A stretch of DNA of 64,000 nt from Stegostoma tigrinum. Its lineage: Eukaryota. The stretch is from positions 2,532,689-2,596,688 of the forward strand of contig NC_081369.1 of assembly GCF_030684315.1 (NCBI RefSeq). Direction: 5' to 3'. The first letter of the stretch is position 1; the number at the start of each line of letters is the position of its first letter. Under the pieces are notes generated by a model, which made no database searches, was not told the DNA's origin, and worked only from the letters and a program-made list of their open reading frames with translations. Positions 4,421-50,108 of the stretch are shown here, piece by piece. A program made the position numbers and the translations under genes.

Positions 4421-5427
4421 ACAGAATTTCCTTGCAGTTAAAAAAAACTGTGACTCTGACTCTCACATCAGCATGTTTATTGTATATTATTTGGGATTTT
4501 TATATCCACATCCACTGGGAGATCATCACATCACGGTTTATGTTACCATTCATAGGCAGTTTCAAAAAACATCACACACAAATAAACGCTCCAAACTCCG
4601 CCAGTTGTGGGCCAACGATGACAATACCAGATTTTTGATGCGATTTGTAATTTATTTCAGAATGTGATCAAAAATGTAATGATGAGAAATGAAATTGAGC
4701 GGGATGTATATTAGCAAAAATGTTAACTTGTGACTTTGTCAATTTTGATTTCATTTTTGTAAACTAGTAATTTAATCTTAAGAATGCTGAACCATAACGG
4801 GAAAAATATTCATCAGTCTCATGGATTTAAACCTTGGCAGTCTGTGGTGGTGTGTATCACACTTTTAGTAAAAGTGTAGTGCATTTGCAGTGTAAAATAA
4901 GGAAATCATTTCACAATATCTTGGCGTATTTCTTGAAAGTTCCAAAATTCACTTGTTACGAAGCAAAGCAAGAAATAAATTGTAGATCGGTTAAATGGTG
5001 AAGCTGATTTTTTTTTGTTAAGGGTGCAAATGTAAAATTATTGTGAGGTCATTCAGATCAAAATCGGTAACGGACAGTTCACAAATGTCTACAGTGCATC
5101 CAATTCTCTGCTCAAAGGCATAGAGATATGCACACATAGTACAAGAGAGAAAGTAAAACAGGAATATGTGGGACAGGAGAAAGCTTTTATTTTGGAGGCC
5201 GTCCACTGAAATGAGATAAATGCACATAGTTTTAAGGGGAAACAACATGCAAGGCAAGGTGTTGTTTGCAGCTTGGAGAAAGTACAAGTGAACTGAACTG
5301 ATGCATATGAAACAATGTTACGTTTTGGAGACATTGGGTCCGCACAATCTGGCACCATTTCTTCTGGGATCAGGACAGCTCAGCGCAATAAGAACCCTCT
5401 GATTGACCTGGCTACGGTTTCACAAAG

Positions 5428-5612
5428 GAAAAAAACAGAAGTTGCTGGAAACGCTCAGCAGGTCTGAAAGCATCTGCAAAGAGAAATCTGAGATAACGTT
5501 TTGTTTCCCGTGATCCTTCCCCAGGACAGTTACTGGGCCTGAAACGTTATCTCTGATTTCTCTGCACAGATGCTGCCAGACCTGCTGACCTTTTCCAGCA
5601 ATTTCACTTTTT
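5428..5612. mobile_element. Palindromic Penelope-derived mini-element (family B)
   Basis: Inverted arms gttgctggaaacgctcagcaggtctg / cagacctgctgaccttttccagcaat; homologous to 39355-39587. Confidence 0.75.
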
Positions 5613-9504: not shown

Positions 9505-9813
9505 TTGCTGTGGGTAATTCAGCCAAAGTGAATCTGGATCTGACATGAAAAACGGTGTAGAGAGGTTAATCAGTTCTCACACAATGTCCTTTTTCTTCGG
9601 AATTCAACTATTCAAATGTTGTCGCTTCGTGGTGGAGAGAAGGTAATAAAACCTTTCTGTAGGAGGACAGCAAAAAGCTCTTCCGTGTAGTTAGAGGAGA
9701 AGCCAACCTTAAAATTCTGAATGTGACAGTACGGGACGCTGGAACATATCACTGTGCAGTCACATATCAGGATCGAACAATTGGGAAAACTGCTGTGGAA
9801 CTTACTGCATATG
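9505..9813 (+). pseudogene. V-set Ig exon, copy 1 (4 in-frame stops)
   Basis: Bounded by acag| and |gtaagt. Encodes ...QCPFS...SWWRE...ANLKILNVTVRDAGTYHCAVTYQDRTIGKTAVELTAY. Stops at 9546 (TGA), 9558 (TAG), 9567 (TAA) and 9660 (TAG), where copy 2 has CGA, CAG, TCA and CAG. Confidence 0.93.
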
Positions 9814-10017
9814 GTAAGTGTCACCGCAGATAAATACAGAGTCTTAGCTGCTTGAAAACAACTAAGAACAGTGAACAAATCAATTTGTTAGATATAGGCA
9901 TATCATGTAAAATATTTGCAGCTGTTTAACATGAAACGTGTTCAAGAATATGAAGACCTTGATGAATCAGTAACACCTCAAAGTTTGAGATCTACACTGT
10001 ATTAAAAATGAATCAGT

Positions 10018-11472: not shown

Positions 11473-11784
11473 CTCCACCAGCTCCTCTGAAAATTGTCTC
11501 TGTGCCATCTGAAGGACTCTTATTCTGCTTCTCTCCAACTCCACTGCAGGACGTCTGAATATTACCCTAAAGCCTTTAACCTTACTTGGCACAAAAATGG
11601 TGCAAACATAATGACAAGATTTGGGAATGAACAGCAAGCAAAACCTGAGGAGCTTTAAAAGTCATCAGCACCATGGAGTTGTGAGAGGCAGTTGGGAGAG
11701 GGACAGTTTGCACATGTCAGGTATATCACTTTTCAAACTCATTTCCAGCAAATGCCTGTTATACTGTTACTGTTGTGAATAAAG
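11473..11784 (+). pseudogene. C1-set Ig exon, copy 1 (frameshifted)
   Basis: ttcag| acceptor. Reconstructed APPAPLKIVS...LQLHCRTSEYYPKAFNLTWHKNG...VISTMEL*...GTVCTCQVYH, showing C1 hallmarks C-x4-F/Y-Y-P, W-x-K-N-G and C-x-V-x-H. Has a +1 frameshift (~11522), a -1 frameshift (~11658), a stop, and a donor apparently mutated to ataaca. Confidence 0.9.
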
Positions 11785-13218: not shown

Positions 13219-13332
13219 ATTTTGCTTCTAAAATCAGTGTTATATTGGCTGCTGTTTGTGCTGCTGGAGTATTTGCAATTCTATTATTGGCCTCAATGAT
13301 CACAGCAGGTTTTCTGTTCTTTATCACCAAAG
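13219..13332 (+). pseudogene. Transmembrane exon, copy 1
   Basis: ttacag|...|gtatga, 114 nt, phase 1/1. Encodes DFASKISVILAAVCAAGVFAILLLASMITAGFLFFITK, open and with no charged residue in the hydrophobic stretch. Confidence 0.85.
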
Positions 13333-23959: not shown

Positions 23960-26900
23960 CTGAAACTGGAGCTCCACGGAATGAAAACACAAATATTGCA
24001 TGTGACAACATTTAACCACCAACAAACAATTGTACATTGAAGCCAGGCCACAAAGTGTTAACTCAAGATGAAAAACTGAAGCAATTATCTCGAAAAGCAT
24101 ACACAGAAGAAGAATTTGGGTGTATTCCTGAATGTTACTGTCTTAAAAATGATGTCTTGCTGAACAAATGCAGACCATCACATATTCAGGCAGATGAGAA
24201 ATGGACAAAAGTTCATCAAGTTCTATTATCACTGGGTTTTCTAAAGGAGGTGTTGCAGGGACCACATGAATTACCAATCTGAGGTCATTTAAAGATTAGA
24301 AAAAATAAAGCCAAGATTCAAAAACACTTTTACTGGCCTGAATTGCAAAAGGATGTTGTTGACTTTTACCTTACATGTCATACATGTCAGGCAATTGGAG
24401 AACCTTAAGCAATAACAAAGCCATCACCTTTAATACCCAGCCCTGCATCTGAGGAACCTTTTACAAGGGTCTTAATTGATTGAGTAGGATCCCTACCTAA
24501 AACAAAAAGGAGGAATGAGAATTTGTTGACGATAATGGATTAGTGCACAGATTTCCACAGGCCATACCATTACACAATATCACAACTAAAAGGATTACAG
24601 AAGTGTTACCCACAGAGATACAATCAGATCAAGGCTCAAATTTTACATCTAAGTTATTCAGGGAAGTTATGGATAGCTTAGGAATAAAACATTTTAAATC
24701 CACTGCGTACCATTCTGAATCACAGAGGGTGTTAGAAAGCTGGGCATCAAACTTTACAAACCATGTTAAGGGCTTATAGTCAAGAATATCCAGACAATAG
24801 GGATAAAGAATTCTGTTTGGACTTTTTTGCAATTAGGGATGTACCAAATGAATCGACCAAATTCAGTCCATTGGAATTAGTTTTTGTGAATAAGGTGAGA
24901 GAACCACGGAAATTTATTCAGGAGAAGTTGGTGAGTCAGAATGCAGAGATCACATATTTAACCTACGTGTCAAAATTAGGGAATGATTAAATAGAGCAGG
25001 GGCATTGGCTGGACATTATTTAAAAATAGCATAGCATATGATGAAACAGAAGGTAGACAAAAAAAATCAAAATGTTGTAATTTTGCGAACAGAGATAAAG
25101 TGTCAGTGTTACTTCCAGTTATAGGTGAACCTTTAAACACAAGGTTTAGTGGACCTTATCAAATCGAAGGGAGATTATGTGAAGTGAATTATTTGATAAG
25201 TACTCCAGATAGAAAGAGATCTCACGCTGTATGTCATGTGAATATACTAAAATGGCATTTTGGTAGGCAAGGTAAGCAACACAAAGTGAAGAACCAGGTC
25301 CAGAGGATTCTGAATTGGACACTTCCCTAATTTAGTTGGACAATGAGGAAGTTCTTAAAAATTGGGAAAAAGTACTGTGGTACTTTCCAAAGGGAAATCA
25401 AAATGACGTGAAAGAGTTAGTACTATTGCCAAAGGAGATATGTGGGAATAAGCTGAGAAGTTCATATTTCGTTATGCATGATGTAGATATAAGAAATGCT
25501 GTTCCAATTCAGCAACATCCTTATAGACTTATCACTCTAAAGTTGTCACAGGCTTAAAAAGAAATTGAACACATTGACCAAGACCACATAATCAAAGTGA
25601 GTTGTAGTGACTGGAGCTCACCCATAGTAATGGTGCCAAAACCAGATAGTACCCATTGACTCAGTATAGGCTATTGCAAAGCCAATGCAGTAACAAAGTC
25701 TGATTCATAACCGATTCCAAGTTTGGAAGACTGTAATGAGAAGATGGGACAAGCAACTTATATTTCCAAGTTGGACTTACTCAGAGGATTCTAGCAGCGA
25801 CCTTTATCCGAAAGAATGAAGACAATTTCAGCTTTCATCACACCAAATGGGAGATACCAATTTAATGTCATGACATTTGGTATTAAAAATGTGCCAGCTA
25901 TAATATCAAAGACTAGCCTGTAAAGTCATTTCTGGATTATCCAATTGTATTGTATAAATCAACGACCTGGTGATATTTAGTCACATGTGGAAGGAATATT
26001 TGCAGCATTTATCAGAATTATTCAATCAACTTTGGGAGGCTGGCTTGCTGATAAATCTGGCTAAGAGTGAATTTGCCAAAGCCAAGCTCACATTTCTGGG
26101 ACATGATATCGGACATGGACTGATGGCCCCACAGAATGTGAAAACACAGGTTATTGAGGAGATTTCCACAACATCAATGAAGAAAGCAGCACTACAATTC
26201 CTGGGATTGAATGGATTTTTTTGGAAATTTGGAATTTTAGCAGTCTGGCTGCTCCACTGACTGAGTTATTGAGGACGTGCAGAAAATTTCAGGGATGGCA
26301 GACTGTCAGAAGGCGTTGATAGCCTGAAAACTGTGTAAACCACTGCCCCAGTGTTAGCCACCATTCAAGGTGTTTACCGATGTGAGTGATGTGGGTGTCA
26401 GTGCTGTACTCCTAAAAGAAGATAATATTAAGAAAGAAGGACCTGTCAGGTATTTTGTCCAGGAAACTGAATATTCATCAATAGGAACATTCCGTGACCG
26501 AGAAGGAGACCTTGAGTTTGGTGTTTGAGTTGCGGTATTTCAACATTCATATTGTCAGTAATGTGTCTGAAGCAATTGTATACACTGATCACAACCTGTT
26601 AAAGCTTTTGTAGAAATTTAAGTACAAGAATTCAAGACTGTTTAGATGGAGCTTATTGTTGCATTCAGTCAATTTGAAATGTATGCATGTGACTTGACAG
26701 GAAAACATAATTGCTGACACGTTGTTATGCCTTGGATGAAGAAGCATTTGATGACAGGAATAAACAGACTGAAATAAAATGTGGCAGTGAATGTTTCCAT
26801 GCTTAGGGTCAACATAGTATATATGTAGTGTCATGTACAAATAGAATAAGACTGAGGAGTTTCAACTGAAGCCATCTTTACATATTGATTGTTCATTCTT

Positions 26901-27526: not shown

Positions 27527-27871
27527 AATCGTACAATTCCTATAGTGCAGAAAGAGGCTATTAGCCCAATTAAGTCTGCACCGACTCTCCAAAGAGAATC
27601 CCCACACATGTTCCTGCCTTATCCCCGTACCCCTTCATTTAACCATGGTTCATCCATCCAGCCTACACAACCCTGAATTCTACAGACAATTTGGTACAGC
27701 TGATCCACATACATATCTTTGGAATGTGGGAGGAAACTGGAGCACCCAACAGAAATCAACACAGACAGAGGGAGAATGTGCAAACTCCACACTGACAGTC
27801 ACCTGAGGCTGGAATCACTCCTCAGTCTCCGGCGCTATGAGAAGCAGTGCTAACCAATGAGCCACCGTGCC
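27527..27871 (-). mobile_element. HE1-like SINE
   Basis: ggaatgtgggaggaaactggagcacc core; ggcacggtggctc head on the minus strand. Confidence 0.88.
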
Positions 27872-30245: not shown

Positions 30246-31867
30246 TACTTAAATATCAGTATTACAGTTAATTGTCTGTTTGCATTTGAACATACCTGTT
30301 CTGAGATCATAACATGAATTTAAAGATAAGTGAAATGCCTCATAAGAAAACAATGAGAGATTAGATTGGTGCAATATGCTTTGTAATATAGTCCAGAAAA
30401 AAAAGTTTCACTAATTTCTGGCTGAGATGTTACCCTTTAAGTTGCAATTCATGGGAAAACTACATTAATCATACTATTACTTTTGAAAAGAATTAATTTG
30501 TATGTTTAATCCTTCATGGTTGCTTCAAAAGTCAATCCACTCAGTTCTCTTATATCATTTCAATCAATACGGCATTATATTTTTTCTTGTACAGAGACAT
30601 CAGTTGTCATTTTCTTTAAGAAAAAGCAAAACTTCCTTGGACATGTACATCTTAGCACAGGGCACAGGTGAAATAATACTAATGTTTTAAAACTTGAACA
30701 ATGGGTTATCAGAAACTGAATTGGTGAAATTATATCAGCAAACATAAATAACTGAATAGTTGGGATATTTCTTTGAGCAAGTTCAGAGTACAATGTCCAG
30801 AATCCTGAATACTTGATATTATTGAGATCGGAAGCAAATATAACAATGGACACCCTCATCAATACCAGACTGTGAGATGTGACAACTGGTGTAGATTAAG
30901 GGTGCATGATGTGTACACTGAGATTGGCAAATTGCTATGGTAGTTGTGATGATCCCAGCTGATATCTTATTTTAACCAGATAAATCAGAAACCAGTTAGG
31001 AGTCTGGTTGATAGATCATAGATTTATTTGGTTGGTTTAATTAGTGTCAATCCATGAAAACAAAAGCACACTGTCCTTTAGATTTTGCTTTATCAACAAA
31101 GCAAATGCATTACAAAAAAGCAAAGATAAAATAATATGAACAAAACTATAAACTTCCATAAAAATTCAAAGACTATAAGCACACAGTAAAATGTACAATT
31201 CCATTAAACACAAAACACTTTTGTGTAAATTGATAAGAAAGAAATGAGCTTTTAAGTCGTATCCAAAACATAATGCCAGTGCAGTTCCCAATACAGCTTC
31301 CATAAATTATTTTACAAAAGCAATTGCACAACGTACTTCCAAGTTAACTATTAACATCAGATACAGTGGTGGTGAGGTGGCGGGGTGGTGAAGCTCGTCA
31401 GTAACACAAAACTAGTAACTCAAGCACACACTAAACATTATACATGTAAATCCAATCGGAATGGGTAGCAATGAAGGAAAAATAACTTGAATGGAAACAA
31501 ATACCTGGTTAATTTATCTGAATAATATAAAGCTTGACATGAGCTCTGTTTACAGGAAACAATCAACAGATCATCCCTCAAATTAGAACTCATGTCAGTA
31601 TGAAACTGGAGCAACTGCTGGACCCCAGAAATGCAAAAAGAAAATGAACATTATAAACATTAAATGTTCTTGACTTGTTAAGGTACATATTTCTGAGATG
31701 CTGCAAACTGTTTTGCAGGAATACTTTGTTGAAAAGGTGGGTTCTCGAGGTTCAAACATTGGGCGGAACATTGGATGAAAAAAAGCACTTCTATTTGCTC
31801 CCTGCACTTTAAGAGTCATGTTTAAACTGCAAATATTGCCAATTGATGAAAATCAACAATGCATGAG

Positions 31868-32240
31868 CAATGTCAATGGTCTGGTAATTCAGTCGCCCAG
31901 ACCAATTTTCGGAGAAGATGTGTTAAATTTCCTCCATGGTAGAAGTGAAAACCTGAATGTAATTTGAGAATTTGGAATTGAAAGTTACTCTAATTCTGAC
32001 CGTATAACACTCATGACTTTAGTGGAAGAAAAAGTATTGGGATCATTAATGCCTTTTACAGAAGGAAACGTCCTGTCCTGAGTAGGTCCGACATGAATGT
32101 GATTCAAGACCCAGAGTCATGTGATTGACTCTTAATGGCTCTCTGAACTGTCCTTGGAACCCACTCAGTTAAAGTGCAATTAGGTTCGGACAATTAATGC
32201 TGGCCCAGCCAATGACGCCCGCATCCAATGAACAAATTAA
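31868..32240 (+). mobile_element. Deu-domain SINE (SacSINE/AmnSINE-related)
   Basis: Degenerate Deu core (cattaatgccttttacagaaggaaacgtcctgtcctg...atgtgattcaagaccc) and a tail shared with the L2/Crack-like LINE. Confidence 0.7.
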
Positions 32241-33247
32241 AACACTGTATTGTAGCCAATTATCACTTGGGCCTATTGAGATTCACAAAAGGAAAAAAAA
32301 AGGCGTAACTACTTTTACACAACATGGTTAAAGTGGAATGACACAGGACTGTTAAACTCAGAACTATTGCTTGAGTTATAGTGGGTCAAACAGCCAATTA
32401 AAACCAAAAAAATGTCATACAACATGAACAAATTAAAAAGAATAAGTAATGAAAAAGCTGATATATATTTGGCACAGCTAGAACTGTCCTACACTGAAAC
32501 AAAAGGCAAAAGGAAATCAAAATATCAATATTTTCAGAAAGTAACTAACAGTGAACTGGTGAGGAAAATCTGATGGTATAGGAGTTTTCAGAAAGCTATA
32601 GTGGAGAGTTCACGAGAATTATGAGTTTAAACGAAAACAGTTGCTACCTCAAATGGTGCAGCAAGTTTGAAGGCAAAATAGAGTTGGTTCATGAGCCATT
32701 AAAAGAAGAAAAAACACCAATGATATCAATATCACTTGATTTTTGTCCGAGTCCCATTAAATTTAGCTGCTGGCTTTCTCCACTACATTTGATGGATTTT
32801 TGTGTTCTGGCTTCAATGTTAATTTGGGACCATTCAAATTCAGAGCAGCAGAAGTCAGCTGGCATTTGTCCACACTATGTTCCATCTGTAAAACAACATT
32901 GAAAGTAATTCATTCTTGTTTCAAATTTCACTAAAAGTTAAGAATTCTTCAACGTTATCTCAAAACCAAATGATTGCAATTAAGGAATACATATGAACAG
33001 AAAGGTACCTCTGCATGCATTGTTCTTTCATCCTGTGGCTTAGGAATTTGAACATCCTTTGAATGGACCCAATTCAAGATCAGCATACATTAATCTGCCT
33101 TTAATAAAATTGCGTAGTGTAAACTAACAGTTGTAATTCAGATATGCAAAGTATATTAACCAAAGAAGTTAAATATATTGAAGTACCCGAGTCATTATTT
33201 TGGCCAGAATTTAAAGAGCCAGTTGGGTCTCACCCGAACAATACATT

Positions 33248-33265
33248 TGGTGCTGTGTGCAGGGT
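33248..33265 (+). promoter_or_regulatory. Retroviral primer-binding site, tRNA-Ser-like
   Basis: tggtgctgtgtgcagggt matches TGGCGCAGCGAGCAGGGT (complement of the vertebrate tRNA-Ser(UGA) 3' end, recalled) at 14/18, with two mismatches being CpG transitions; it lies 2 nt after a CA. Confidence 0.6.
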
Positions 33266-33408
33266 CTGAGTAAAATGTGAAAGAAACTGAAGGATACTTT
33301 GGCTCTGGAAGCATTCGGTGTCCCGGGATGGTCCTGTAACCATTGGTTCCGTGTGTCAGTGATCGGTTGGCTGCGGCAGGACCACTTGGTTTTGGGAAAG
33401 GCATTATA

Positions 33409-33717
33409 TTAGATTCCCTACAGTGTGGAAACAGGCCCTTTGACCCAACGAGTCTACACCGCCTCTTGGAGCATCCCAGCCAGACCCATCCCCCTATAAG
33501 CATACACCCCTGACCACTATGGACAATTTAGCATGGCCGATCCACCTAGCCTGTACATCTTTGGACTGCGGGAGGAAACCGGAGCACCTGGAGGAAACCC
33601 ACTCAGACACGGGGAGAACGTGCAAACTCCGCACAGACAGTTACCCGAGGCTGGGATCGAAACTGGTTCCCTGGTGCTGTGAGGCTGCAGTGCTAGACAC
33701 TGAGCCACCATGCCGCC
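33409..33717 (-). mobile_element. HE1-like SINE inserted in ERV gag
   Basis: Well-preserved head ggcggcatggtggctcagtg and V-domain core. Confidence 0.92.
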
Positions 33718-34067
33718 TGAAATTTCGGTACAGAATCCCAAGAGATGACTCTGTGCCATGAAGGGCTGACTCGGGGAAATAGGTTTCCCAAAGCAAACCA
33801 AGGGCGTCACCCACTTGGGGTGGATCCTGCTGAGCGGCCTCCCTTATGCTGCGCCGGGAGGTGCGAGATTGAAAGGAGGCGAACAGTTCATTTACCGCTG
33901 CGCTGGTGAGGGCGGCACAGACTGATCAGGAAAGAACGGATAAAGCCGAGTAGAAGCAGACGAGTATCAGAGATAATGGGAACTGCAGATGCTGGAGAAT
34001 TCCAAGATAATAAAATGTGAGGCTGGATGAACACAGCAGGCCAAGCAGCATCTCAGGAGCACAAAAG

Positions 34068-34097
34068 CTGACGTTTCGGGCCTAGACCCTTCATCAG
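34068..34097 (-). ncRNA. Minimal hammerhead-like motif
   Basis: Exact reverse complement of CTGATGAAGGGTCTAGGCCCGAAACGTCAG. Confidence 0.7.
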
Positions 34098-36902
34098 AGA
34101 GGGGGATGGGGAGAGGGAACTGGAATAAATAGGGAGAGAGTGGGAGGCGGACCGAAGATGGAGAGTAAAGAAGATAGGTGGAGAGAGTGTAGGTGGGGAG
34201 GTAGGGAGGGGATAGGTCAGTCCAGGGAAGACGGACAGCTCAAGGAGGTGGGATGAGGTTAGTAGGTAGATGGGGGTGCGGCTTGGGGTGGGAGGGAGGG
34301 ATGGGTGAGAGGAAGAACCGGTTAGGGAGGCAGAGACAGGTTGGACTGGTTTTGGGATGCAGTGGGTGGGGGGGAAGAGCTGGGCTGGTTGTGTGGTGCA
34401 GTGGGGGGAGGGGACGAACTGGGCTGGTTTAGGGATGCAGTAGGAGAAGGGGAGATTTTGAAACTGGTGAAGTCCACATTGATACCATATGGCTGCAGGG
34501 TTCCCAGGCGGAATATGAGTTGCTGTTCCTGCAACCTTCGGGTGGCATCATTGTGGCACTGCAGGAGGCCCATGATGGACATGTCATCTAGAGAATGGGA
34601 GGGGGAGTGGAAATGGTTTGCGACTGGGAGGTGCAGTTGTTTGTTGCGGACTGAGCGGAGGTGTTCCGCAAAGCGGTCCCCAAGCCTCCGCTTGGTTTCC
34701 CCAATGTAGAGGAAGCCGCACCGGGTACAGTGAATGCAGTATACCACATTGGCAGATATGCAGGTGAACCTCTGCTTAATGTGGAATGTCATCTTGGGGC
34801 CTGGGATGGGGGTGAGGGAGGAGGTGTGGGGACAAGTGTAGCATTTCCTGCGGTTGCAGGGGAAGGTGCCGGGTGTGGTGGGGTTGGAGGGCAGTGTGGA
34901 GCGAACAAGGGAGTCACGGAGAGAGTGGTCTCTCCGGAAAGCTGACAGGGGAGGGGATGGAAAAATGTCTTGGGTGGTGGGGTCGGATTGTAAATGGCGG
35001 AAGTGTCAGAGGATAATGCATTGTATCCGGAGGTTGGTAGGGTGGTGTGTGAGAACGAGGGGGATCCTCTTGGGGCGGTTGTGGCGGGGGCGGGGTGTGA
35101 GGGATGTGTTGCGGGAAATACGGGAGACGCGGTCAAGGGCGTTCTCGATCACTGTGGGGGGAAAGTTGCGGTCCTTGAAGAACTTGGACATCTGGGATGT
35201 GTGGGAGTGGAATGTCTTATCGTGGGAGCAGATGCGGCAGAGGCGGAGGAATTGGGAATAGGGGATGGAATTTTTGCAGGAGGGTGGGTGGGAGGAGGTG
35301 TATTCCAGGTAGCTGTGGTAGTCGGTGGGCTTGAAATGGACATCAGTTACAAGCTGGTTGCCTGAGATGGAGACTGAGAGGTCCAGGAAGGTGAGGGATG
35401 TGCTGGAGATGGCCCAGGTGAACTGAAGGTTGGGGTGGAAGGTGTTGGTGAAGTGGATGAACTGTTCGAGCTCCTCTGGGGAGCAAGAGGCGGCGCCGAT
35501 ACAGTCATCAATGTACCGGAGGAAGAGGTGGGGTTTGGGGCCTGTGTAGGTGCGGAAGAGGGACTGTTCCACGTAACCTACAAAGAGGCAGGCATAGTTG
35601 GGGCCCATGCAGGTGCCCATGGCCACCCCCTTAGTCTGTAGAAAGTGGGAGGAGTCAAAAGAGAAGTTGTTGAGTGTGAGGACGAGTTCGGCTAGGCGGA
35701 TGAGAGTGTCGGTGGAGGGGGACTGGTCGGGCCTGCGGGACAGGAAGAAGCGGAGGCGGCCGCCGCATCTGCTCCCACGATAAGACATTCCACTCCTGCA
35801 CATCCCAGATGTCCAAGTTCTTCAAGGACCGCAACGTTCCCCCCACAGTGATCGAGAACGCCCTTGACGGCGTCTCCCGTATTTCCCGCAACACATCCCT
35901 CACACCCCGCCCCCGCCACAACCGCCCCAAGAGGATCCCCCTCGTTCTCACACACCACCCTACCAACCTCCGGATACAACGCATTATCCTCCGACACTTC
36001 CGCCATTTACAATCCGACCCCACCACCCAAGACATTTTTCCATCCCCTCCCCTGTCAGCTTTCCGGAGAGACCACTCTCTCCGTGACTCCCTTGTTCGCT
36101 CCACACTGCCCTCCAACCCCACCACACCTGGCACCTTCCCCTGCAACCGCAGGAAATGCTACACTTGTCCCCACACCTCCTCCCTCACCCCCATCCCAGG
36201 CCCCAAGATGACATTCCACATTAAGCAGAGGTTCACCTGCACATCTGCCAATGTGGTATACTGCATCCACTGTACCCGGTGCGGCTTCCTCTACATTGGG
36301 GAAACCAAGCGGAGGCTTGGGGACCGCTTTGCAGAACACCTCCGCTCAGTCCGCAACAAACAACTGCACCTCCCAGTCGCAAACCATTTCCACTCCCCCT
36401 CCCATTCTCTAGATGACATGTCCATCATGGGCCTCCTGCAGTGCCACAATGATGCCACCCGAAAGTTGCAGGAAAAGCAACTCATATTCCGCCTGGGAAC
36501 CCTGCAGCCATATGGTATCAATGTGGACTTCACCAGTTTCAAAATCTCCCCTTCTCCTACTGCATCCCTAAACCAGCCCAGTTCGTCCCCTCCCCCCACT
36601 GCACCACACAACCAGCCCAGCTCTTCCCCCCCACCCACTGCATCCCAAAACCAGTCCAACCTGTCTCTGCCTCCCTGACCGGTTCTTCCTCTCACCCATC
36701 CCTCCCTCCCACCCCAAGCCGCACCCCCAGCTACCTACTAACCTCATCCCACCTCCTTGACCTGTCCGTCTTCCCTGGACTGACCTATCCCCTCCCTACC
36801 TCCCCACCTACACTCTCTCCACCTATCTTCTTTACTCTCCATCTTCGGTCCGCCTCCCCCTCTCTCCCTATTTATTCCAGTTCCCTCTCCCCATCCCCCT
36901 CT

Positions 36903-36932
36903 CTGATGAAGGGTCTAGGCCCGAAACGTCAG
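36903..36932 (+). ncRNA. Minimal hammerhead-like motif
   Basis: CTGATGAAGGGTCTAGGCCCGAAACGTCAG, intact. Confidence 0.7.
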
Positions 36933-37029
36933 CTTTTGTGCTCCTGAGATGCTGCTTGGCCTGCTGTGTTCATCCAGCCTCACATTTTATTATCTTCGAA
37001 GCAGACTAGTACCACCTGCAACGAAAGCT

Positions 37030-37290
37030 AAAAAAAAATACTGGGAATCACAGCGGGTCAGGCAGCATCCATGGAGAGAGAGCAAGTTAACGTTTCGGGT
37101 CTAGATGACCCTTCACCAGAGCTGGTGAAGTCCTGGAGGAGGCAGCATTTATACAATGGGGTGTGGGGAGGCAGGAGTGCTGGGGGAGAAACAATGTTGA
37201 TAGTGCAGATTAAGTGATCGGAATGTGAGAAGGGCAGAACAATGGTCTGTGTAACTGCCGGGCTGGTAAGAACAGACAGTCAAACTGTAT
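37030..37290 (-). mobile_element. Penelope 3' fragment (family B-related)
   Basis: Reverse complement contains CTGGTGAAGGGTCATCTAGACCCGAAACGTTAAC and the gatgctgcctgacc tail motif. Confidence 0.7.
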
Positions 37291-38200
37291 AACCTGCAAA
37301 TTGGCCACATTGCAGCACAAAAAGCGGGTGAGTACGAAAAATCAAACAAACTAGAAAGTGAATCCAGCTGAAGTTCCCTTTTTATTAACTTCACCTGGTC
37401 TCCAATTACTGGGACTCATATTCATTCGATTTGGAGTACGAGGGGACTGATGGGGAAGGAGACTCTAATGTTGATAATGTGCCCTTTAGCTCGTTAGTAA
37501 CTAATACAGCTAAGGGGGCACGGCCAGCAGACGCCCCACAGTATGCTCGCTTTGTTCGGGATTACTCACTGACAGAATTACAGGATTTGGGAAAAAAATA
37601 TTCCGGCAGAAAGCAGGGCAAGGGGAGATTGGATTAACCGGCTGTGGGACTCGGTAGCGTCAAATGTTTCTCTCAATAATGAGGAGCCTTGTCTAAATAC
37701 ACAGCCACACAGAATGCTCAACATGGAGCACAGGGAACAGGAGCATTAGCTGCTTGGACACGCATAGCAGTGAGAACTAAGTATCCGGATCACTCATGGA
37801 TTGGGAGCAGGAAGCTGTTCCGTAGCGTAAAACATCATAGCGAAGTGCCCGATTCCAGAGTTAGCTGCACAAACGGGATTGTGCACGATCAATTTCCAGG
37901 GATGGGCCTAGAAGCTTTCACAACCCGAATGAGAATCCAGCTCATGCACATTGGATCAAGTCATCTCAGAGGGACGCTGCTGGCAATGTAGGGGCGAGCT
38001 CAGGGCAGACCAGTTGGTGAAGTTGTAATGTTGTTTGGACAGTTAGTGGATGCGGAAGTGCGCCAAGCTCATGCAGGAGAGCGGTAACAAGGGAAACCCA
38101 GGAAAGGACGGGTTTGCTGTGTTGTGGAAAACTGGCACGGGCAGGCCCGTAATAGACAGAAAATGCATGGTATCACCACCAGTGTTCCCTCTGAAAGAAG
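37290..38200 (+). pseudogene. gag: ERV gag remnant (ERV-L Gag/Fv1-like); N-terminal pieces at 33275-33400 and 33720-33968
   Basis: VRDYSLTELQDLGKK/FRQKAG...GDWINRLWDSVASNVSLNNEE (37554-37686) fits the ERV-L Gag pattern Y-x3-EL...RQ..GE...W..R.WD.G....L...E. Upstream pieces read VPGWSCNHW and LGWILLSGL. Confidence 0.8.
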
Positions 38201-38429
38201 AATTGTAAATCCGGTAAGGGACCAAAGGGGGGATCAACCCCGTCCATGGTGTGAGGCACCAATTCTGATTCAGATGCTCCTTTGCAGAGAAAGGAAAAAA
38301 AGGGATACATCAGAGTTGCTTCTGTGGCCTCCATGAGGGGAACTGGAGCAGATGTGGAGAGTGAGTAATCCCCTAGACGGGGAAGGCGGTCGGGACAGTG
38401 AGATGTGACCAAAAGGGGAATCGACTCAG

Positions 38430-39010
38430 GAATCGAGACGCCATACATCTGCATAACAATTCATTGGAGAAATGGAAATAAACAGCACATTGTGGCATTG
38501 GATCTCCCAGATATTGTAACATTCCCGGAGCAACTGTCATTGGGAACCAATGAATGGTTTGCCGGAATCTACCTACCGAATACTTTCATTTCCTTGATGA
38601 GAACTCACAGAATCAGTTTGCTTTCACATGGGAGGGCAGAGAGCACACAGTTTGTAGGTTACACGGGGCTACTTGCACAGTCCAACTCTTTGCCACGGTT
38701 TAATGGACAGGATCTGGAGATGCTCCCTCTCTCCAGCGATACATGGCTCTCAGGAAGTAAAAGCCGAAGACACGGCTACTTTGACTCAGCACTTACGGAA
38801 TAAAGGCTGGGAAATTAATCCTAAGAAAATCCAGAGATCAAGCCGGTGTCTTATTTTGTTGAGAATACAATGGGCCGGGGAGACGGTGTGATTCCTGACA
38901 ATGTCAGATATAAAATCAGTGAGATGCAAGCCTGGACTGCTAAAGAAATGGCCCAAAGCTTTGTGGCGATGTGGGGTTGTTGAAGAAGGCAAGTCCCTCA
39001 CTTAACCTAA
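38430..39010 (+). pseudogene. pol: ERV protease N-terminus fused by deletion to RT
   Basis: PYICITIHWRNGNKQHIVALD | LPDIVTFPEQL...WFAGIYLPNTFIS / QNQFAFTWEG / GYLHSPTLCHGLM / HLRNKGWEINPKKIQ...IQWAG, characteristic of ERV-L-type Pol. Confidence 0.9.
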
Positions 39011-39149
39011 TGACACCTCACCACAGAACTGGTTTCTTACTTGGACTTTGGGACACAGAGCCTAAGGGAGATATTGCCTGGCAGTGGCTCAATGCATGGT
39101 GATTAGCTCGTATGTCAAAATACCACAGAGACAAAGGAGCGTAAACCGT

Positions 39150-40169
39150 CTTGGGGATTATAGTGGTGAGCCATGAAATCGGCTTCATTAAATTCCATAC
39201 AATTCCCCCATCTTCAGCAGTAGTATGACACCTGCACCGCAAAACAAATATCGCTTGAACTGGGACAGTGGAGTTACCTAATGGCCTTCCCATTGCCGCT
39301 CGGTATACACATGATCAATATCACAGAGGCGAGACGGGAGAAATGTACTCGTCAAATAAAAACCAAAAGAACTGCGGATGCTGTAAATCAGGAACAAAAA
39401 CAACGTTGCTGGAAAAGCTCAGCAGGTCTGGCTGAATCTGTAAAGGAGAAAAACAGAGTTAACATTTCGGGCCCCGTGACCCGGTTCTGCGGAAGAGTCA
39501 CCAGACCCCGAAACGTTCGATCTGTTTTCTCCTTCACAGGTGCTGCCAGACCTGCAGAGCTTTTCCAGCAACTTTGTTTTTGTTCGTGAAATGTACTCGT
39601 CACTATTCTCGGTTGAGCAGAGGCGAGAATAGGTGTATTAACTTCCATGGATATTGAGACTATGGAAGTAGAATTGCGAAAGCTGGGCAAATAACTGACG
39701 ATGGTATTAAATTAGTCGCTGTGTGGACCAAATCATTAGTCCGTAGAGATTTCGCAAATTGATTTTTGAGCGACAAGGTTTGGAAGTTTGCTAATAGCAC
39801 CCCCACGTGTGACATTTAAGAAATCGCAGGCTTTCCTTGTCAAGCATCATCAGATTAGTTGTCATTTGGCAACAGTACACCAGCGCTTCTTACAGCAAGA
39901 AACTGCCATGACTTGCAATCACCATCAATTGATTCCCAAAGCAAATAAAGTAGGAGCCTTTACTATGTATCATTAAGTGGGTCATATTTAATAGGTGGTC
40001 AGCAAAAGTTTCAGCAGTATGCTCACTGTTATGGTATCCAATTGTTTATATTATTGTTCATTGTTTGTTGACCATTTTATGTGCCCGTGTAATGGCCTGT
40101 AAACGATACCGCAAGTATAAAGAACTTGTAGCTGTTGAGCAGCATGTCCGTGCTTATACAAGGTTTTGA
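39150..40169 (+). pseudogene. env: ERV env remnant
   Basis: With the 39355-39602 insertion and TSD removed: RRDGR/NVLVTILG*AEARIGVLTSMDIETMEVELRKLG (cleavage site, fusion peptide, heptad). At 39975-40169: KWVIFNRWSAKVSAVCSLLWYPIVYIIVHCLLTILCARVMACKRYRK (membrane-proximal Trp motif, TM, basic tail). Confidence 0.65.
39355..39587. mobile_element. Palindromic Penelope family B mini-element with 15-bp TSD
   Basis: gaaatgtactcgtca at 39340-39354 and 39588-39602; inverted arms; ~36-nt unpaired tail on the left only. Confidence 0.92.
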
Positions 40170-40859
40170 CGATCTGTTTTGAAGATGTCAATGGGTGTTG
40201 TGCAGTGTGGGCTTAAAAATGACATCTCCAATAAGGGTTTACAAATAAGGGTTAATTGGGCATGAAAATCAGCAATTGAAGACAAGAGGAAAATGACAGG
40301 TTTAGTGTAACAACGGCCTTCTTTGGCTGGGAGGTAACTGCATGACCTTGGCTGGGTGGGAAACAGAATAATGTGCAGATAAAAAGGAGCCATCCGGCAG
40401 ATTTTTTTTCAACTTGTTTTCAACTGCAGGAAACACGCGATAAGTTCTGTGAAATGGTGCTACAGCATGTAACAGTAGATTCAGAACAGCATTAAAATCG
40501 GGAACTATGCCCCAGTCATTGGACTTTCACCGTTGGGTTGGAGTTCTGGAGACGGGCATCATGGAATCTGAGACAGAGTTCCAAGTGCCGTCATCGCCGA
40601 AGTCCCCGCCGAGTCCGAAAGGCAGTATGTGAATCACTTTTTAAACGTATATCTGCGATGTTTAACCAAACCATTTAACTTGAATATGTGTCCATAATTT
40701 AAAATTTCAACGATTAATTCAGAAACGAATGAAATATTCACCAAATAAATTAGCTATATAATGAGTTCGCTCGTCTCCTTGTAATCATTTCAATCACACT
40801 TTAAAATGGCCCCGTTAGATAGAGTTGGCCTAACAACACAGAAGGACTTGATTGCGCTG

Positions 40860-41320
40860 GGTAGGGTGCAAAGGAGATTCACCAGGATGCTGTCTGGTTG
40901 GGAACATTTTAGCTGTGATGTTTCTGGAGAAGCATGGATTGTTTTCTTTCGAGCAGAGAAGGTTGGGGGGAGCCCTGATTGAGGTGTCTATGATTATGAA
41001 GGCAGGAACAGGGTGGTTTTTCTTTAAAAAGAAACAGCTGTTCCCTTTAGTTGAAGGGTGAATAACGTGAGGTCACAATGTGCAGAGGGAAATGCAAGAG
41101 GTTTAGAACAAAATGGAGGATTTTTTTTCACCCGCGAGGGTGTTGGGTATCAGGAATTCACTGCCTGGGAGGCTAGTGCAGGTGGGAAACCTTTTAAGAA
41201 ATGTACGTAAACGAGGAAGTAAAATAGCACAACATTCAGGGCTCCGGACAAAGGGCTAGAAAGCGTGATTAGTGTAAATATGTGGGCTGCACATATGGGT
41301 TTTTCTGCGCAGTATGACCT
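40860..41320 (+). mobile_element. CR1 LINE 3' fragment
   Basis: agggtgcaaaggagattcaccaggatg and LFSFEQRRLGGALIEV. Confidence 0.8.
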
Positions 41321-42061: not shown

Positions 42062-42365
42062 CGGTGGCACGGTGGCTCAGTGGTTGACACTGCTACCTTC
42101 CAGGTCCAGGGATCCGTGTTCGAGATGGTGACTGTCTGTGTGGTGTTTGCACATTCTTCCCGGGCCCGAGTGGGTTTTTACCGTTTCCTCCCGCAGTCCA
42201 AAGATGTGCAGGTTCGGTGGATTGGTCATTGTCCACAGTGTCCAGGGATCTGCAGGTAAAGGTGGGTTGGCCCGGGAATGCGGGGTGGCGGTATGGTGGG
42301 ATAACAAGGATAGGGTAGGAGACTCCTCGGAGGGTCGATACACGACACCGGTGGGATTCCATAGT
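42062..42365 (+). mobile_element. HE1-like SINE
   Basis: cggtggcacggtggctcagtggttgacact head and V-domain core. Confidence 0.88.
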
Positions 42366-42892: not shown

Positions 42893-44079
42893 GCTAATGA
42901 ATGATGTGGATATGCTTAAATTTGCTGATGTTTCGGGCAGCCGTGGTACAAGGTTTCCACTTTCCCTGACGGAGACACCCATTGACATTCATGAAGACGC
43001 TGTACTGAATATTTCGCTCAGAAATCCAGCAAATCCAAGACGGCACCATGGGCATGGAACGCATGTGAAGCTGTAGATCAGTGATTGCCTCAGTCTGCTC
43101 CTGTTCTTTAGTTCCGAAGTGCATTTAGACGTAAATTGAGATGTGTTTGTTTAAGATGTCCAGTGCAAATAAATAATAGTCCAGAACATTTTGTTTATTC
43201 TCTGTTTGGGGGAATTCCTGACAATTAATCTCAAGAGGCAGTGTTTCTTTCTTGAAGCTTTAATACAATGAATGTCTTGTCTTCAGTTTCACTGCATTAT
43301 CCTGATGCCGTCCTTCCCACTTCCGTGGGAACTGTAGCCATTCAGGCAAGTAAAGAGATTTCAGCAAAGTCCTGAATTCTGCAGTTTAGAGAGAAGTAAT
43401 GCACTTCCAAGCAATGATATGGATCGACAAACAGCGATCCCCTGCCCTGCTTCTGAAAATCTCCTGTATTCCCTCTGAAACTGCTCACTCGGTTTATCCG
43501 CGCCTCGTTGACCACAGCGGATTAAGAAGGCAGCCGAGGCGGTTTTCTCAGGAGTACTTAGGGGTTTCCAAGAAACACTGGCCCAGCCAACAACGTCCAC
43601 ATTCCGTAAAACCAACACAATAAAGTTGTGTTTTCAGTTTCATTTCAAGAGCCAATCCGTTAATGATGTCTGGAAAGAACATAAAGGCCCTGGCAGAGAA
43701 AAAAATTGTCACGGGCTATAAATGCATTAGGTTGCTCCTAACATTGTTAAATAAAACACGGACAAAAACTGACGTTGCTGTAAAAGCTCATCAGGTGTAG
43801 CAGCATCTGTGATGGAAAGATCAGAATTAACTTTTCGAGTCCGGTGACCCTTTTTCCAGTAACTGACACTTATCTAAAGTGTCAGACAGATGTTTGTCTG
43901 CAACTGTCCAGAAAGGCCATGGTAAAGCATTTGTGTAGTCCTGAAGCTGAGATCTTCAACAATTGACCTGATTTTATCAGTTCTCAAATTCGAGAAATGC
44001 GGCATTTTGAGCTGATCATCTGGTGGTCGTATTAAACACCTTTTTGTGTGTAGAGCAAACAGCTGCAGCTATTGTGCTG

Positions 44080-48516: not shown

Positions 48517-48601
48517 CCTTGTTGTCAAGAGAAGTCACCTCTCCCTCATGCTTGGTTATTTTCTTTTTCCCAGAGAGTCAAGGAGCATGGAAATAAATCC
48601 T

Positions 48602-50108
48602 AGATAACAAAGTGTGGAGCTGGATAAACACAGCAGGCCAACCAGCATCTCAGGAGCACAAAAGCTGATGTTTTAGGCCTAGACCTTCATCAGAGAGGGG
48701 GATGGAGAGAGGGAACTGGAATAAATAGGGAGAGAGGGGGAGGCGGACCGAAGATGGAGAGAAAACAAGATAGGTAGAGAGGAGAGTATAGGTGGGGAGG
48801 TAGGGAGGGGATAGGTCAGTCCAGGGAAGATGGACAGGTCAAGGAGGCGGGATGAGGTAGTAGGTAGAAAATGGAGGTGCGGCTTGAGGTGGGAGGAAAG
48901 TATGGGTGAGAGGAAGAATAGGTTAGGGAAGCAGAGACAGGCTGGGCTGGTTTTGGGATGCACTGGGGAAGGGGAGATTTTGAAGCTTGTGAAGTCCACA
49001 TTGATACCATTGGGCTGTAGGGTTCCTAAGCGGAATATGAGTTGTTTTTCCTGCAACCTTCAGGTGGCATCATTGTGGCACTGCAGGAGGCCCATGATGG
49101 ACACGTCGTCTGAGGAATGGGAGGGGGAGTTGAAATGGTTTGCGACTGGGAGGTGCAGTTGTTTGTTGCAAACTGAGCGGAGGTGTTCTGCAAAGCGGTC
49201 CCCAAGCCTCCGCTTGGTTTCCCCAATGTAGAGGAAGCCACACCGGGTGCAATGGATACAATATACCACATTGGCAGATGTGCAGGTGAACATCTGTTTG
49301 ATATGGAAGGTCATCGTGGGGCCAGGGATGGGGGTGATGGAGGAGGTGTGGGGGCAAGTGTAGCACTTCCTGCGGTTGAAGAGGAAGGTGCCAGGTGTGG
49401 TGGGGTTGGAGGGGAGTGTAGAGTGGACAAGGGAGTCACGGAGAGAGTGGTCTCTCCGGAAGGCAGACAAGGGTGGGGGTGGAAAAATGCCTTGGGTGGT
49501 GTGGTCGGATTGTAGATGGCAGAAGTGTCGGAGAATGATATATTGTACCCGGAGCTTGGTGGGGTGGTATGTGAGGATGACTGGATCCTCTGGAGGCGGT
49601 TGTGGCTGGGGCGGGGTGTGAGGGATGTGTTGCGGGAAATATGGGAGACCTGGGCAAGGGCGTTCTCGACCACTGCGGAGGGGAGAGTTGCGGTCCTGGA
49701 AGAACGTGGACATCTGAGATGAGAGTCGAGTGGAATGCCTCATCCTGGGAGCTGATGCGGAGGAATTGGGCATCGGGGATGGAATTTTTGCAGGAGGGTG
49801 GGTGGGAGGAGGTGTATTCTAGGTAGCTGTGGGAGTCAGTGGGCTTGAAATGGACATCAGTTTCTAGCTGGTTACCTGTGATGGAGGCTGATAGGTCCAG
49901 GAAGGTGAGGGATGTGTTGGAGATGGCCCAGGTGAACTTGAGGTTGGTGTGGAAGGTGTTGGTGAAGTGTTGAACTGTTTGAGCTCCTCTGGGGAGCAAG
50001 AGGCGGCGCCGATACAGTCATCAATGTAATGGAGGAAGATGTGGGGTTTGGGGCCTGTGTAGGTGCGGAAGAGAGACTGTTCCACATAACCTACAAAGAG
50101 GCAGGCAT
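48602..50108 (-). mobile_element. Penelope family A, 5'-truncated
   Basis: RT (FLHYIDDCIG) and GIY-YIG (VYCIHCTRCGFLYIGET) with frameshifts; the 3' end lacks the ~35-nt tail. Confidence 0.94.

Follow-up and report, generated by a model that had tools for sequence, protein, structure and literature searches.

A decayed class III (ERV-L/ERV-S-like) provirus with a probable env remnant in Stegostoma tigrinum

Does the genome of Stegostoma tigrinum hold an endogenous retrovirus (ERV) of the ERV-L type that once carried an envelope gene, and what became of it? The question is raised by a 64,000 nt stretch of contig NC_081369.1 (assembly GCF_030684315.1, positions 2,532,689 to 2,596,688), here called the window, in which a sequence-only reading placed an env-bearing class III, ERV-L-like element at 33100..40838. 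The analysis favors one inactive provirus of class III (ERV-L/ERV-S-like), likely with an env remnant, which would descend from an enveloped retrovirus that likely entered an elasmobranch germ line, decayed, and was likely copied later together with its flank. The probability of this reading is put at about 0.78. The provirus is at positions 33099–40840 on the + strand and is 7742 bases in length, of which 3855 are viral and 3887 lie in four later insertions. Judged from its nucleotide sequence the copy is dead and makes no working protein; the catalytic motifs of protease and reverse transcriptase (RT) are gone, and no viral stretch runs without a stop for more than 133 codons. There is no sign of co-option, and no viral gene stays open.

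The limits of the provirus are given by a pair of long terminal repeats (LTRs). The 3' end of the 5' LTR (33099..33246, +) is 66% identical over 146 columns to positions 40679–40840, with a Kimura two-parameter (K2P) distance of 0.45. The score of the pair is 49.5, compared with 28.9 ± 3.6 and a maximum of 44.5 in 200 shuffles, and 40679–40840 is the best place for the 5' LTR piece among 1248 window tiles. The boundaries first proposed are borne out by this pair, which beats every shuffle. Both LTR copies end in CA, and the end of the 5' copy is 2 bases ahead of the primer binding site (PBS). Only the final 147 bases of the 5' LTR survive; the part upstream scores 28 against 27 for shuffles and is undetectable. 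Its 5' edge is likewise undetectable, so no 5-base target duplication is readable for the provirus. The 3' LTR (40199..40840, +) ends at the CA at 40840 and has an uncertain start, at approximately 40199 or at 40294. The first position comes from contig depth, which rises 2.7- to 6.7-fold in bin 40152–40275 in four of four DNA sequencing runs, and the alternative comes from a purine tract.

The six motifs cited in the sequence-only reading are all present on the + strand: YSLTELQDL at 37563, NRLWDS at 37636 (in another frame), FAFTWEG at 38617, GYLHSPTLCH at 38667, GWEINPKKIQ at 38805 and GVLTSMDIETM at 39632. They sit, however, in three frames divided by stops and frameshifts (37563 to 39664). 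A tblastn search with class III Pol proteins matches positions 38429–39007, with a best E value of 8e-19 and another of 1e-16, and the element is matched at E ≤ 1 by 118 of 121 fetched proteins. A 77-residue RT frame used as query returns two proteins, both retroviral Pol. The matched region consists of a protease N-terminal piece (38429..38500, +), which aligns with residues 547–570 of a stingray Gag-Pol model (P0151, z 8.7) and residues 7–30 of P0002, and an RT remnant (38504..39007, +) in four frame pieces, identified by tblastn and the RT tree. The motif scan finds no D[TS]G in the protease, where the active site and the next ~175 residues are absent, and no YxDD in the RT, where that segment is missing. 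A weak, probable integrase N-terminal remnant (39101..39298, +) aligns with residues 952–1017 of an avian protein (P0052, score 52, z 4.4–4.5) and was reached with one of the five Pol proteins tried. The connection, RNase H, dUTPase and remaining integrase were not found in the provirus; the integrase C-terminus is missing in this copy, so the GPY/F region is gone. The dUTPase motif is also lacking in the nearest relative, P0151, while in the window its region is deleted. Pfam searches with nine frames of the viral parts (stops read as X) show no retroviral family, a PDB search with the 77-residue RT frame gives a single match judged to be chance, and Rfam and ARAGORN find nothing in the whole window. 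The viral genes have large deletions and half of the span consists of later insertions. The lack of a Pfam match is ascribed to decay, not absence.

RT trees include 39 class III proteins (spread by host, from 121), 15 reference retroviruses and the 165 RT residues of the window, with a Gypsy remnant from the window (25588–26221) as outgroup; there are 57 rows in the FastTree analysis and 28 in the IQ-TREE analysis. The reference retroviruses are IMG/VR loci, whose labels we assume from length, PBS and RT motif. The epsilon type is one locus (L036), and HERV-S, HERV-L, walleye viruses and lokiretroviruses are not among the rows; a His-PBS scan found no walleye epsilonretrovirus and a Ser(AGA) PBS scan no RT-bearing locus. 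The window RT is within the ERV-L/S-like clade with a support of 1.0 (FastTree) and 100/100 (IQ-TREE). It therefore groups neither with Gypsy nor with the one epsilon locus, a grouping on which the class assignment could have failed, and it is likewise apart from gamma, SnRV and foamy viruses. Within the clade it joins two Hemitrygon elements and one Narcine element (FastTree 0.958; IQ-TREE 96.6/94). RT identity is 30–48% to 38 of the 39 class III rows, the exception being a partial gene model of the white shark (P0075, 24%). It is 13–24% to gamma, epsilon-like, SnRV, foamy, beta, delta, lenti and Gypsy rows, e.g., 22% to the SnRV row and 18% to the Gypsy remnant at 25588–26221. One row (P0011) is taken as MuERV-L by its Mus musculus cluster names and a DYRKLN motif (Table 2 of PMC8278194), and a Xenopus tropicalis row in the ERV-L/S-like clade (P0012) is taken as XtERV-S or close kin by its DYRGLN motif. 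The white shark P0075 is in a different subclade from the window RT, so elasmobranchs hold at least two ERV3 lineages. Class III-related Pol is present in RefSeq from two rays, white shark, bichir, lungfish, killifish, seahorse and amphibians.

A candidate PBS resembling that for tRNA-Ser(CGA) is at positions 33248..33265 (+), where 15 of 18 bases are complementary to the 3' end of tRNA-Ser-CGA-1-1. Pairing was counted by hand against five mammalian tRNAs printed in PMC10359600, not against tRNAs of the host; the other four fit at 12 (Ser-AGA), 12 (His), 10 (Leu-CAG) and 9 (Leu-CAA) of 18 bases. Of the three positions that differ from Ser(CGA), two are G-U-compatible. The Ser-like site of the sequence-only reading is thus recovered, and the tRNA-Leu site of a strict ERV-L is not. 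The leader is very short: gag starts with an ATG at 33276 (33276..33404, +), and positions 33308–33358 align weakly with two N-termini, that of white shark P0075 at z 3.5 and that of stingray P0151 at z 2.9. A second gag N-terminal piece (33721..33966, +) aligns at 33770–33955 with residues 62–131 of P0014 and P0151 (z 5.3 and 4.7). The rest of gag, the Fv1/ERV-L type capsid region (37300..38400, +), has many stops and frameshifts; matches to P0151 follow in order at 37521–37601 (z 3.5), 37630–37686 (z 5.0) and 37911–38027 (z 7.6). There are thus five Gag pieces, z 2.9 to 7.6, that are collinear with the stingray protein across the insertions. Positions 37300–37480 and 38060–38260 show no match to P0151, and 37700–37900 matched out of order. 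The motif scan finds no zinc knuckle CX2CX4HX4C in the window or its relatives, a negative that is weakened for the window by decay. The stingray cluster that matches Gag carries the RefSeq name 'Friend virus susceptibility protein 1-like'. These properties support a predicted Gag of the Fv1/ERV-L type without a zinc knuckle, and together with the RT tree they uphold the ERV-L-like class III assignment.

The nearest RT neighbors are ERVs of rays in RefSeq, XP_072898008.1 (P0151) and P0084 from Hemitrygon akajei and XP_069782200.1 (P0033) from Narcine bancroftii. They have 39–48% RT identity to the window, and their Gag and the start of their protease are collinear with it. The gene model P0151 covers Gag-Pol almost completely, whereas the copy in the window has deletions and frameshifts. 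The ray elements are known as database gene models and not as described families in the literature found. P0151, P0152 and P0153 from Hemitrygon akajei and P0171 from Narcine bancroftii are long class III Gag-Pol models, some with Fv1-like names; the ray Gag-Pol models, with clusters of 13 and 14 members, suggest that batoids hold younger ERV3 families. MuERV-L and mammalian ERV-L are in the same RT clade (P0011, 39% identity) and have an Fv1-type Gag without zinc knuckle, but they are Leu-primed and env-less with a dUTPase after integrase, whereas the window has a Ser-type PBS, a probable env and a deleted dUTPase region. XtERV-S is an intact, Ser-primed frog class III ERV with a gamma-type env (Yedavalli 2021, PMC8278194), and the same paper takes class III to include ERVs of fish, amphibians and birds. 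It shares with the window a class III gag-pol, a Ser PBS, a short leader, an env and an anamniote host. It differs in being intact, in its Ser(AGA/TGA) PBS where the window fits Ser(CGA) better, in its dUTPase, and in a gamma-type env with CWIC, the immunosuppressive domain (ISD) and CX6CC, none of which is seen in the window env. On these characters the element is classed as a member of ERV3, and as neither ERV-L in the strict sense, by its PBS and probable env, nor of the XtERV-S type.

The region that follows the integrase remnant and precedes the 3' LTR shows, in order, an R-x-x-R site, an insertion, a fusion-peptide match and a hydrophobic segment with basic residues behind it. The R-x-x-R motif (39330..39341, +) is a candidate env cleavage site found by motif scan, with nearly all of the surface subunit missing. 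The env fusion peptide and heptad start (39590..39703, +) consist of 37 residues with 38% identity to residues 817–853 of a lungfish protein (P0018, XP_043935349.1, Protopterus annectens), which has an env piece at residues 780–1046 on a class III Pol. This match (score 64, z 7.0) is the top of 271 proteins in three frames, with 50 for the runner-up. It falls immediately after the RNKR site of P0018, and the R-x-x-R of the window sits just upstream of its own piece; the two sites would correspond in position. A probable membrane anchor with basic cytoplasmic tail is in a 71-codon open frame (39954..40169, +), where a 19-mer at 40041–40097 has a hydropathy of 2.25. This value is equalled at 18 places in the window, so the anchor call rests on position, not score. 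The env proposed from the letters is backed by the lungfish match and the position of the anchor, and no profile or database match was obtained for it; it is the weakest part of that reading. That the window provirus bears an env remnant is nonetheless likely from the order and placing of these pieces.

The lungfish element has a class III RT in a neighboring subclade, is the sole env match, and has kept a longer env piece than the window. In the ESM atlas the nearest cluster to this piece is 'fusion glycoprotein F0', with a score of 0.94 and 198 shared features, and 47% of its members have PF00523 (Fusion_gly); further matches are baculovirus F and Gypsy env. An env of F type is a lead that we rate slightly below even odds. 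An env motif is absent from the 270 other fetched proteins, save for one gamma-type transmembrane subunit (TM) in P0088, and searches of viral and metagenome contigs for class III loci with env gave 0, 0 and 1 (pol only). Similar envs occur in ERV3 elements of birds, although no search showed one. A separate SnRV-like locus (L061:6131-9532) has a 1134-codon env frame without a retroviral env match in Pfam and ~340 residues from the last basic site to the membrane anchor.

Other copies are seen in contigs of four DNA runs, X1 and X2 from organism A and X5 and X8 from organism B, aligned on positions 37300–41000 at 80% likeness; summed contig depth is not taken as copy number. The internal region is covered in 30 of 30 bins in both X1 and X2, and in 29 and 30 of 30 bins in organism B. 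Up to 8 contigs with differing letters are present at one place in X1. Two contigs, in X1 and X2, cross position 40840 into the same flank and are 17–21% different (83 and 101 differences in ~480 bases), and one X8 contig also crosses the LTR end at 40840 into this flank. Four of the contigs listed (X5, X8) span the junction of the RT-to-integrase deletion. The copies are 12–21% apart, with no young ones among the contigs listed, and LTR bins are deeper than internal bins. A shared flank is unlike separate integrations, and duplication of one old locus is therefore the simplest reading. The element was likely multiplied by duplication of its locus after decay, and spread in trans of a deleted family may have added copies.

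Several observations weigh against the favored reading. In the RT tree the window branch is long (0.94) with only 165 residues placed, the exact sister has a support of 55.6/60, and HERV-S and HERV-L are absent. Support for env is the single 37-residue match: Pfam shows no match to the window env pieces, phmmer with the fusion-peptide frame shows none at E ≤ 0.001 in 1.84 billion proteins, and the ESM atlas has no usable match to the anchor frame. The absence of gamma motifs says little in a gene so heavily deleted. The lungfish env returns only itself in a word search, has no Pfam match, and in PDB reaches a spike protein at E 1.3, which is not counted; its AlphaFold model, made from one sequence, has a pLDDT of 35 and is unusable. 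The likeness to F is one embedding score for the lungfish env, uncalibrated for protein parts. Duplication is read from short contigs only.

Four other explanations were weighed. An env-less ERV-L-type retrotransposon, with non-coding sequence ahead of the 3' LTR and a fusion-peptide match due to chance, is improbable. It agrees with the blank profile and database searches of the window env pieces, with the 18 places that match the hydrophobic 19-mer, and with the fact that none of the fetched ray proteins shows an env-like motif. It does not explain why, out of 271 proteins compared in three frames, the one that scores highest (64 versus 50) is the sole env-containing class III model, matched right behind its cleavage site, nor why basic site, fusion-peptide match and hydrophobic-plus-basic stretch follow in the correct order from integrase to LTR. 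A gamma-type env as in XtERV-S, i.e., class I env with class III gag-pol, is very improbable. XtERV-S shows that this combination exists and also has a Ser PBS (PMC8278194). The distance from fusion peptide to anchor of ~135 codons is close to that of a gamma-type TM. But the motif scan finds no CX6CC, ISD-like or CWxC motif in the window env region; there is no TLV_coat match in Pfam and none to the TLV_coat part of P0088, whose gamma-type TM reaches z ≤ 2.2 (SnRV env, z ≤ 0), and the sole match, P0018, is a non-gamma env.

Spread of the deleted form as a non-autonomous LTR family mobilized in trans, in which case the copies would be separate insertions, is unlikely as the whole explanation. 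The copies in two species do have the large pol deletion in common, and solo LTRs or separate insertions would give LTR bins deeper than internal ones. Yet at least three contigs share sequence past the LTR end, which is unexpected for separate integrations, and no young copies accompany those that are 12–21% apart. Duplication and trans mobilization may both have acted. A Gypsy retrotransposon, or an ERV of epsilon, SnRV-like or foamy-like type, has practically no chance of being the correct assignment; nothing beyond general RT similarity favors it, and the 100/100 split and RT identities of 18–24% stand against it in a tree with one epsilon locus and no lokiretroviruses. Membership of each group was rejected separately: the RT is placed away from SnRV-like elements and there is neither an Arg PBS nor a zinc knuckle, it is placed away from spumaviruses and the PBS is not of the Lys type, and it does not group with Gypsy/Ty3, at 18% identity.

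The favored history, descent of a single class III provirus from an enveloped ancestor, can be put as follows. The progenitor would have used tRNA-Ser(CGA) as primer for reverse transcription and built a zinc-knuckle-free capsid of the Fv1 type. It would have entered cells by means of a class I fusogen that was cleaved by furin and resembled the one in the lungfish class III ERV, not the gamma type of XtERV-S; an infectious progenitor is suggested by the env remnant. Integration in the elasmobranch germ line likely took place long ago, most of the coding capacity would then have been lost through deletion and point change, and the four insertions would have arrived at different times. A cartilaginous-fish host agrees with the RT tree and with repeats of shark type in the window. 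The arms of the Penelope-type insertion described below are 99% alike while the LTRs are 66% alike, which implies insertions of different times. The decayed provirus was then likely duplicated along with its neighborhood. Dating of the integration was tried and rejected. A K2P of 0.45 over 146 LTR columns gives ~1000 million years with the rate that Han 2015 assumes for sharks, which is impossible, and ~100 million years at the mammalian rate quoted there, usable only as 'old'. A bearing on the age of class III, as first claimed, does not follow from a copy that is datable so poorly.

The four insertions differ in type. A SINE (33405..33720) has copies at 27686, 42063–42229 and 44976, and no target duplication was found for it. 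A young Penelope-type retroelement with an inverted duplication (33967..37011; RVT_1 E 0.0073 and GIY-YIG E 0.0005 in Pfam) has a core of 523 bases between two arms of 1239 bases each (34000–35238 and 35762–37000), which are 99% complementary; its target duplication is 14 bases long and has 1 mismatch. More Penelope copies are in the window at about 1–1100 and 48595–50000. A short repeat of 278 bases related to Penelope ends (37022..37299) has matches elsewhere in the window and an 8-base target duplication. A very high-copy short element with inverted ends (39355..39602) has an exact 15-base target duplication (39340–54 and 39588–602). Its 65-base inverted ends are Penelope-like terminal sequence. 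The element also lies at 5426–5604 and 43752–43852 and is common to both species, with a summed contig depth above 600,000 in X1.

The neighborhood holds other decayed sequences. A broken immunoglobulin (Ig) superfamily receptor gene (+) is represented by 9540–9815, 11490–11700 and 13228–13332, with a V-set exon with stops (Pfam E 2.5e-8), a frameshifted C1-set exon (E 0.0017) and a hydrophobic exon; its PDB matches are generic Ig domains. This broken V-C1-TM gene, 20 kb upstream of the provirus, suggests a duplicating immune-gene region. At 24500–26600 (+) there is a decayed LTR-retrotransposon in which RT and RNase H follow the integrase (rve, p58 C-terminus). This order is unusual for an ordinary Gypsy element and is found in Gmr1-like elements. 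Just upstream of the provirus, 31500–32950 (+) has stop-poor frames of 60–106 codons that resemble decayed coding sequence, with nothing credible in Pfam.

An env in a class III element had been regarded as surprising, with the lineage mostly described from amniotes, and neither point survives comparison with published work. ERV3 groups of crocodilians and others encode env, and its loss is derived in mammals (Chong 2014, PMC4299795), and the frog XtERV-S is also already published. The crocodilian groups are env-bearing like the window element but have amniote hosts, and are compared by description only. The clade Huo, class III ERVs included, infects all major vertebrate lineages (Xu 2018), in agreement with the RefSeq Pol proteins of rays, white shark, bony fish and amphibians. 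Gamma-type env is reported in six cartilaginous fishes, as is class III Pol with gamma env (Chen 2021, bioRxiv 2021.11.23.469661). In the part available of Han 2015 (PMC4422223), the elephant shark ERVs are SnRV-like and epsilon-like and none is ERV-L-like; CmiERV lineage I in that paper is an env-bearing non-class-I ERV of cartilaginous fish, but SnRV-like. Lokiretroviruses have an env with RxKR, a fusion peptide and similarity to F (PF00523), and it was left open whether such an env is the ancestral state of retroviruses or special to lokiretroviruses (Wang and Han, PMC7947760). These features resemble those suggested for the P0018 env, as compared by description only; the lokiretrovirus RT is sister to all other retroviruses, whereas the window RT is nested in ERV3. 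Other papers (PMC10536682, PMC13524379, PMC12583693, PMC4977317, PMC10435555, PMC5381603, PMC2717909) have, in the parts available, little bearing on the question. In the literature covered, no shark or ray element of the ERV-L type that carries env was found, nor an F-like env in ERV3; outside its scope were subscription journals, Dfam, Repbase and the supplements of Xu 2018 and Chen 2021, where one may be described.

As a single dead copy, the provirus is one more host record in a group known from all major vertebrate lineages. Env-bearing ERV3 and a wide vertebrate host range are already published, which leaves the possible F-type env as the one new aspect. For the type of env and the age of ERV3, the ray elements of the P0151 cluster, which are less decayed, are a better source than this locus. 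Tentatively, and with the odds rather against it, an elasmobranch ERV-L-type branch may have carried a paramyxovirus-F-like env shared with the lungfish class III ERV. An F-type env inside ERV3 would later have been swapped, as for the gamma type of XtERV-S, or lost, as in ERV-L, and the insertion would predate the split of the two shark species, with a very old minimum age. If true, the presence in sharks and lungfish of an ERV-L-type backbone with an F-like env would favor a distribution wider and older than the lokiretroviruses, a point left open in the available part of PMC7947760, and an insertion common to two shark species would provide a calibration point for the age of ERV3.

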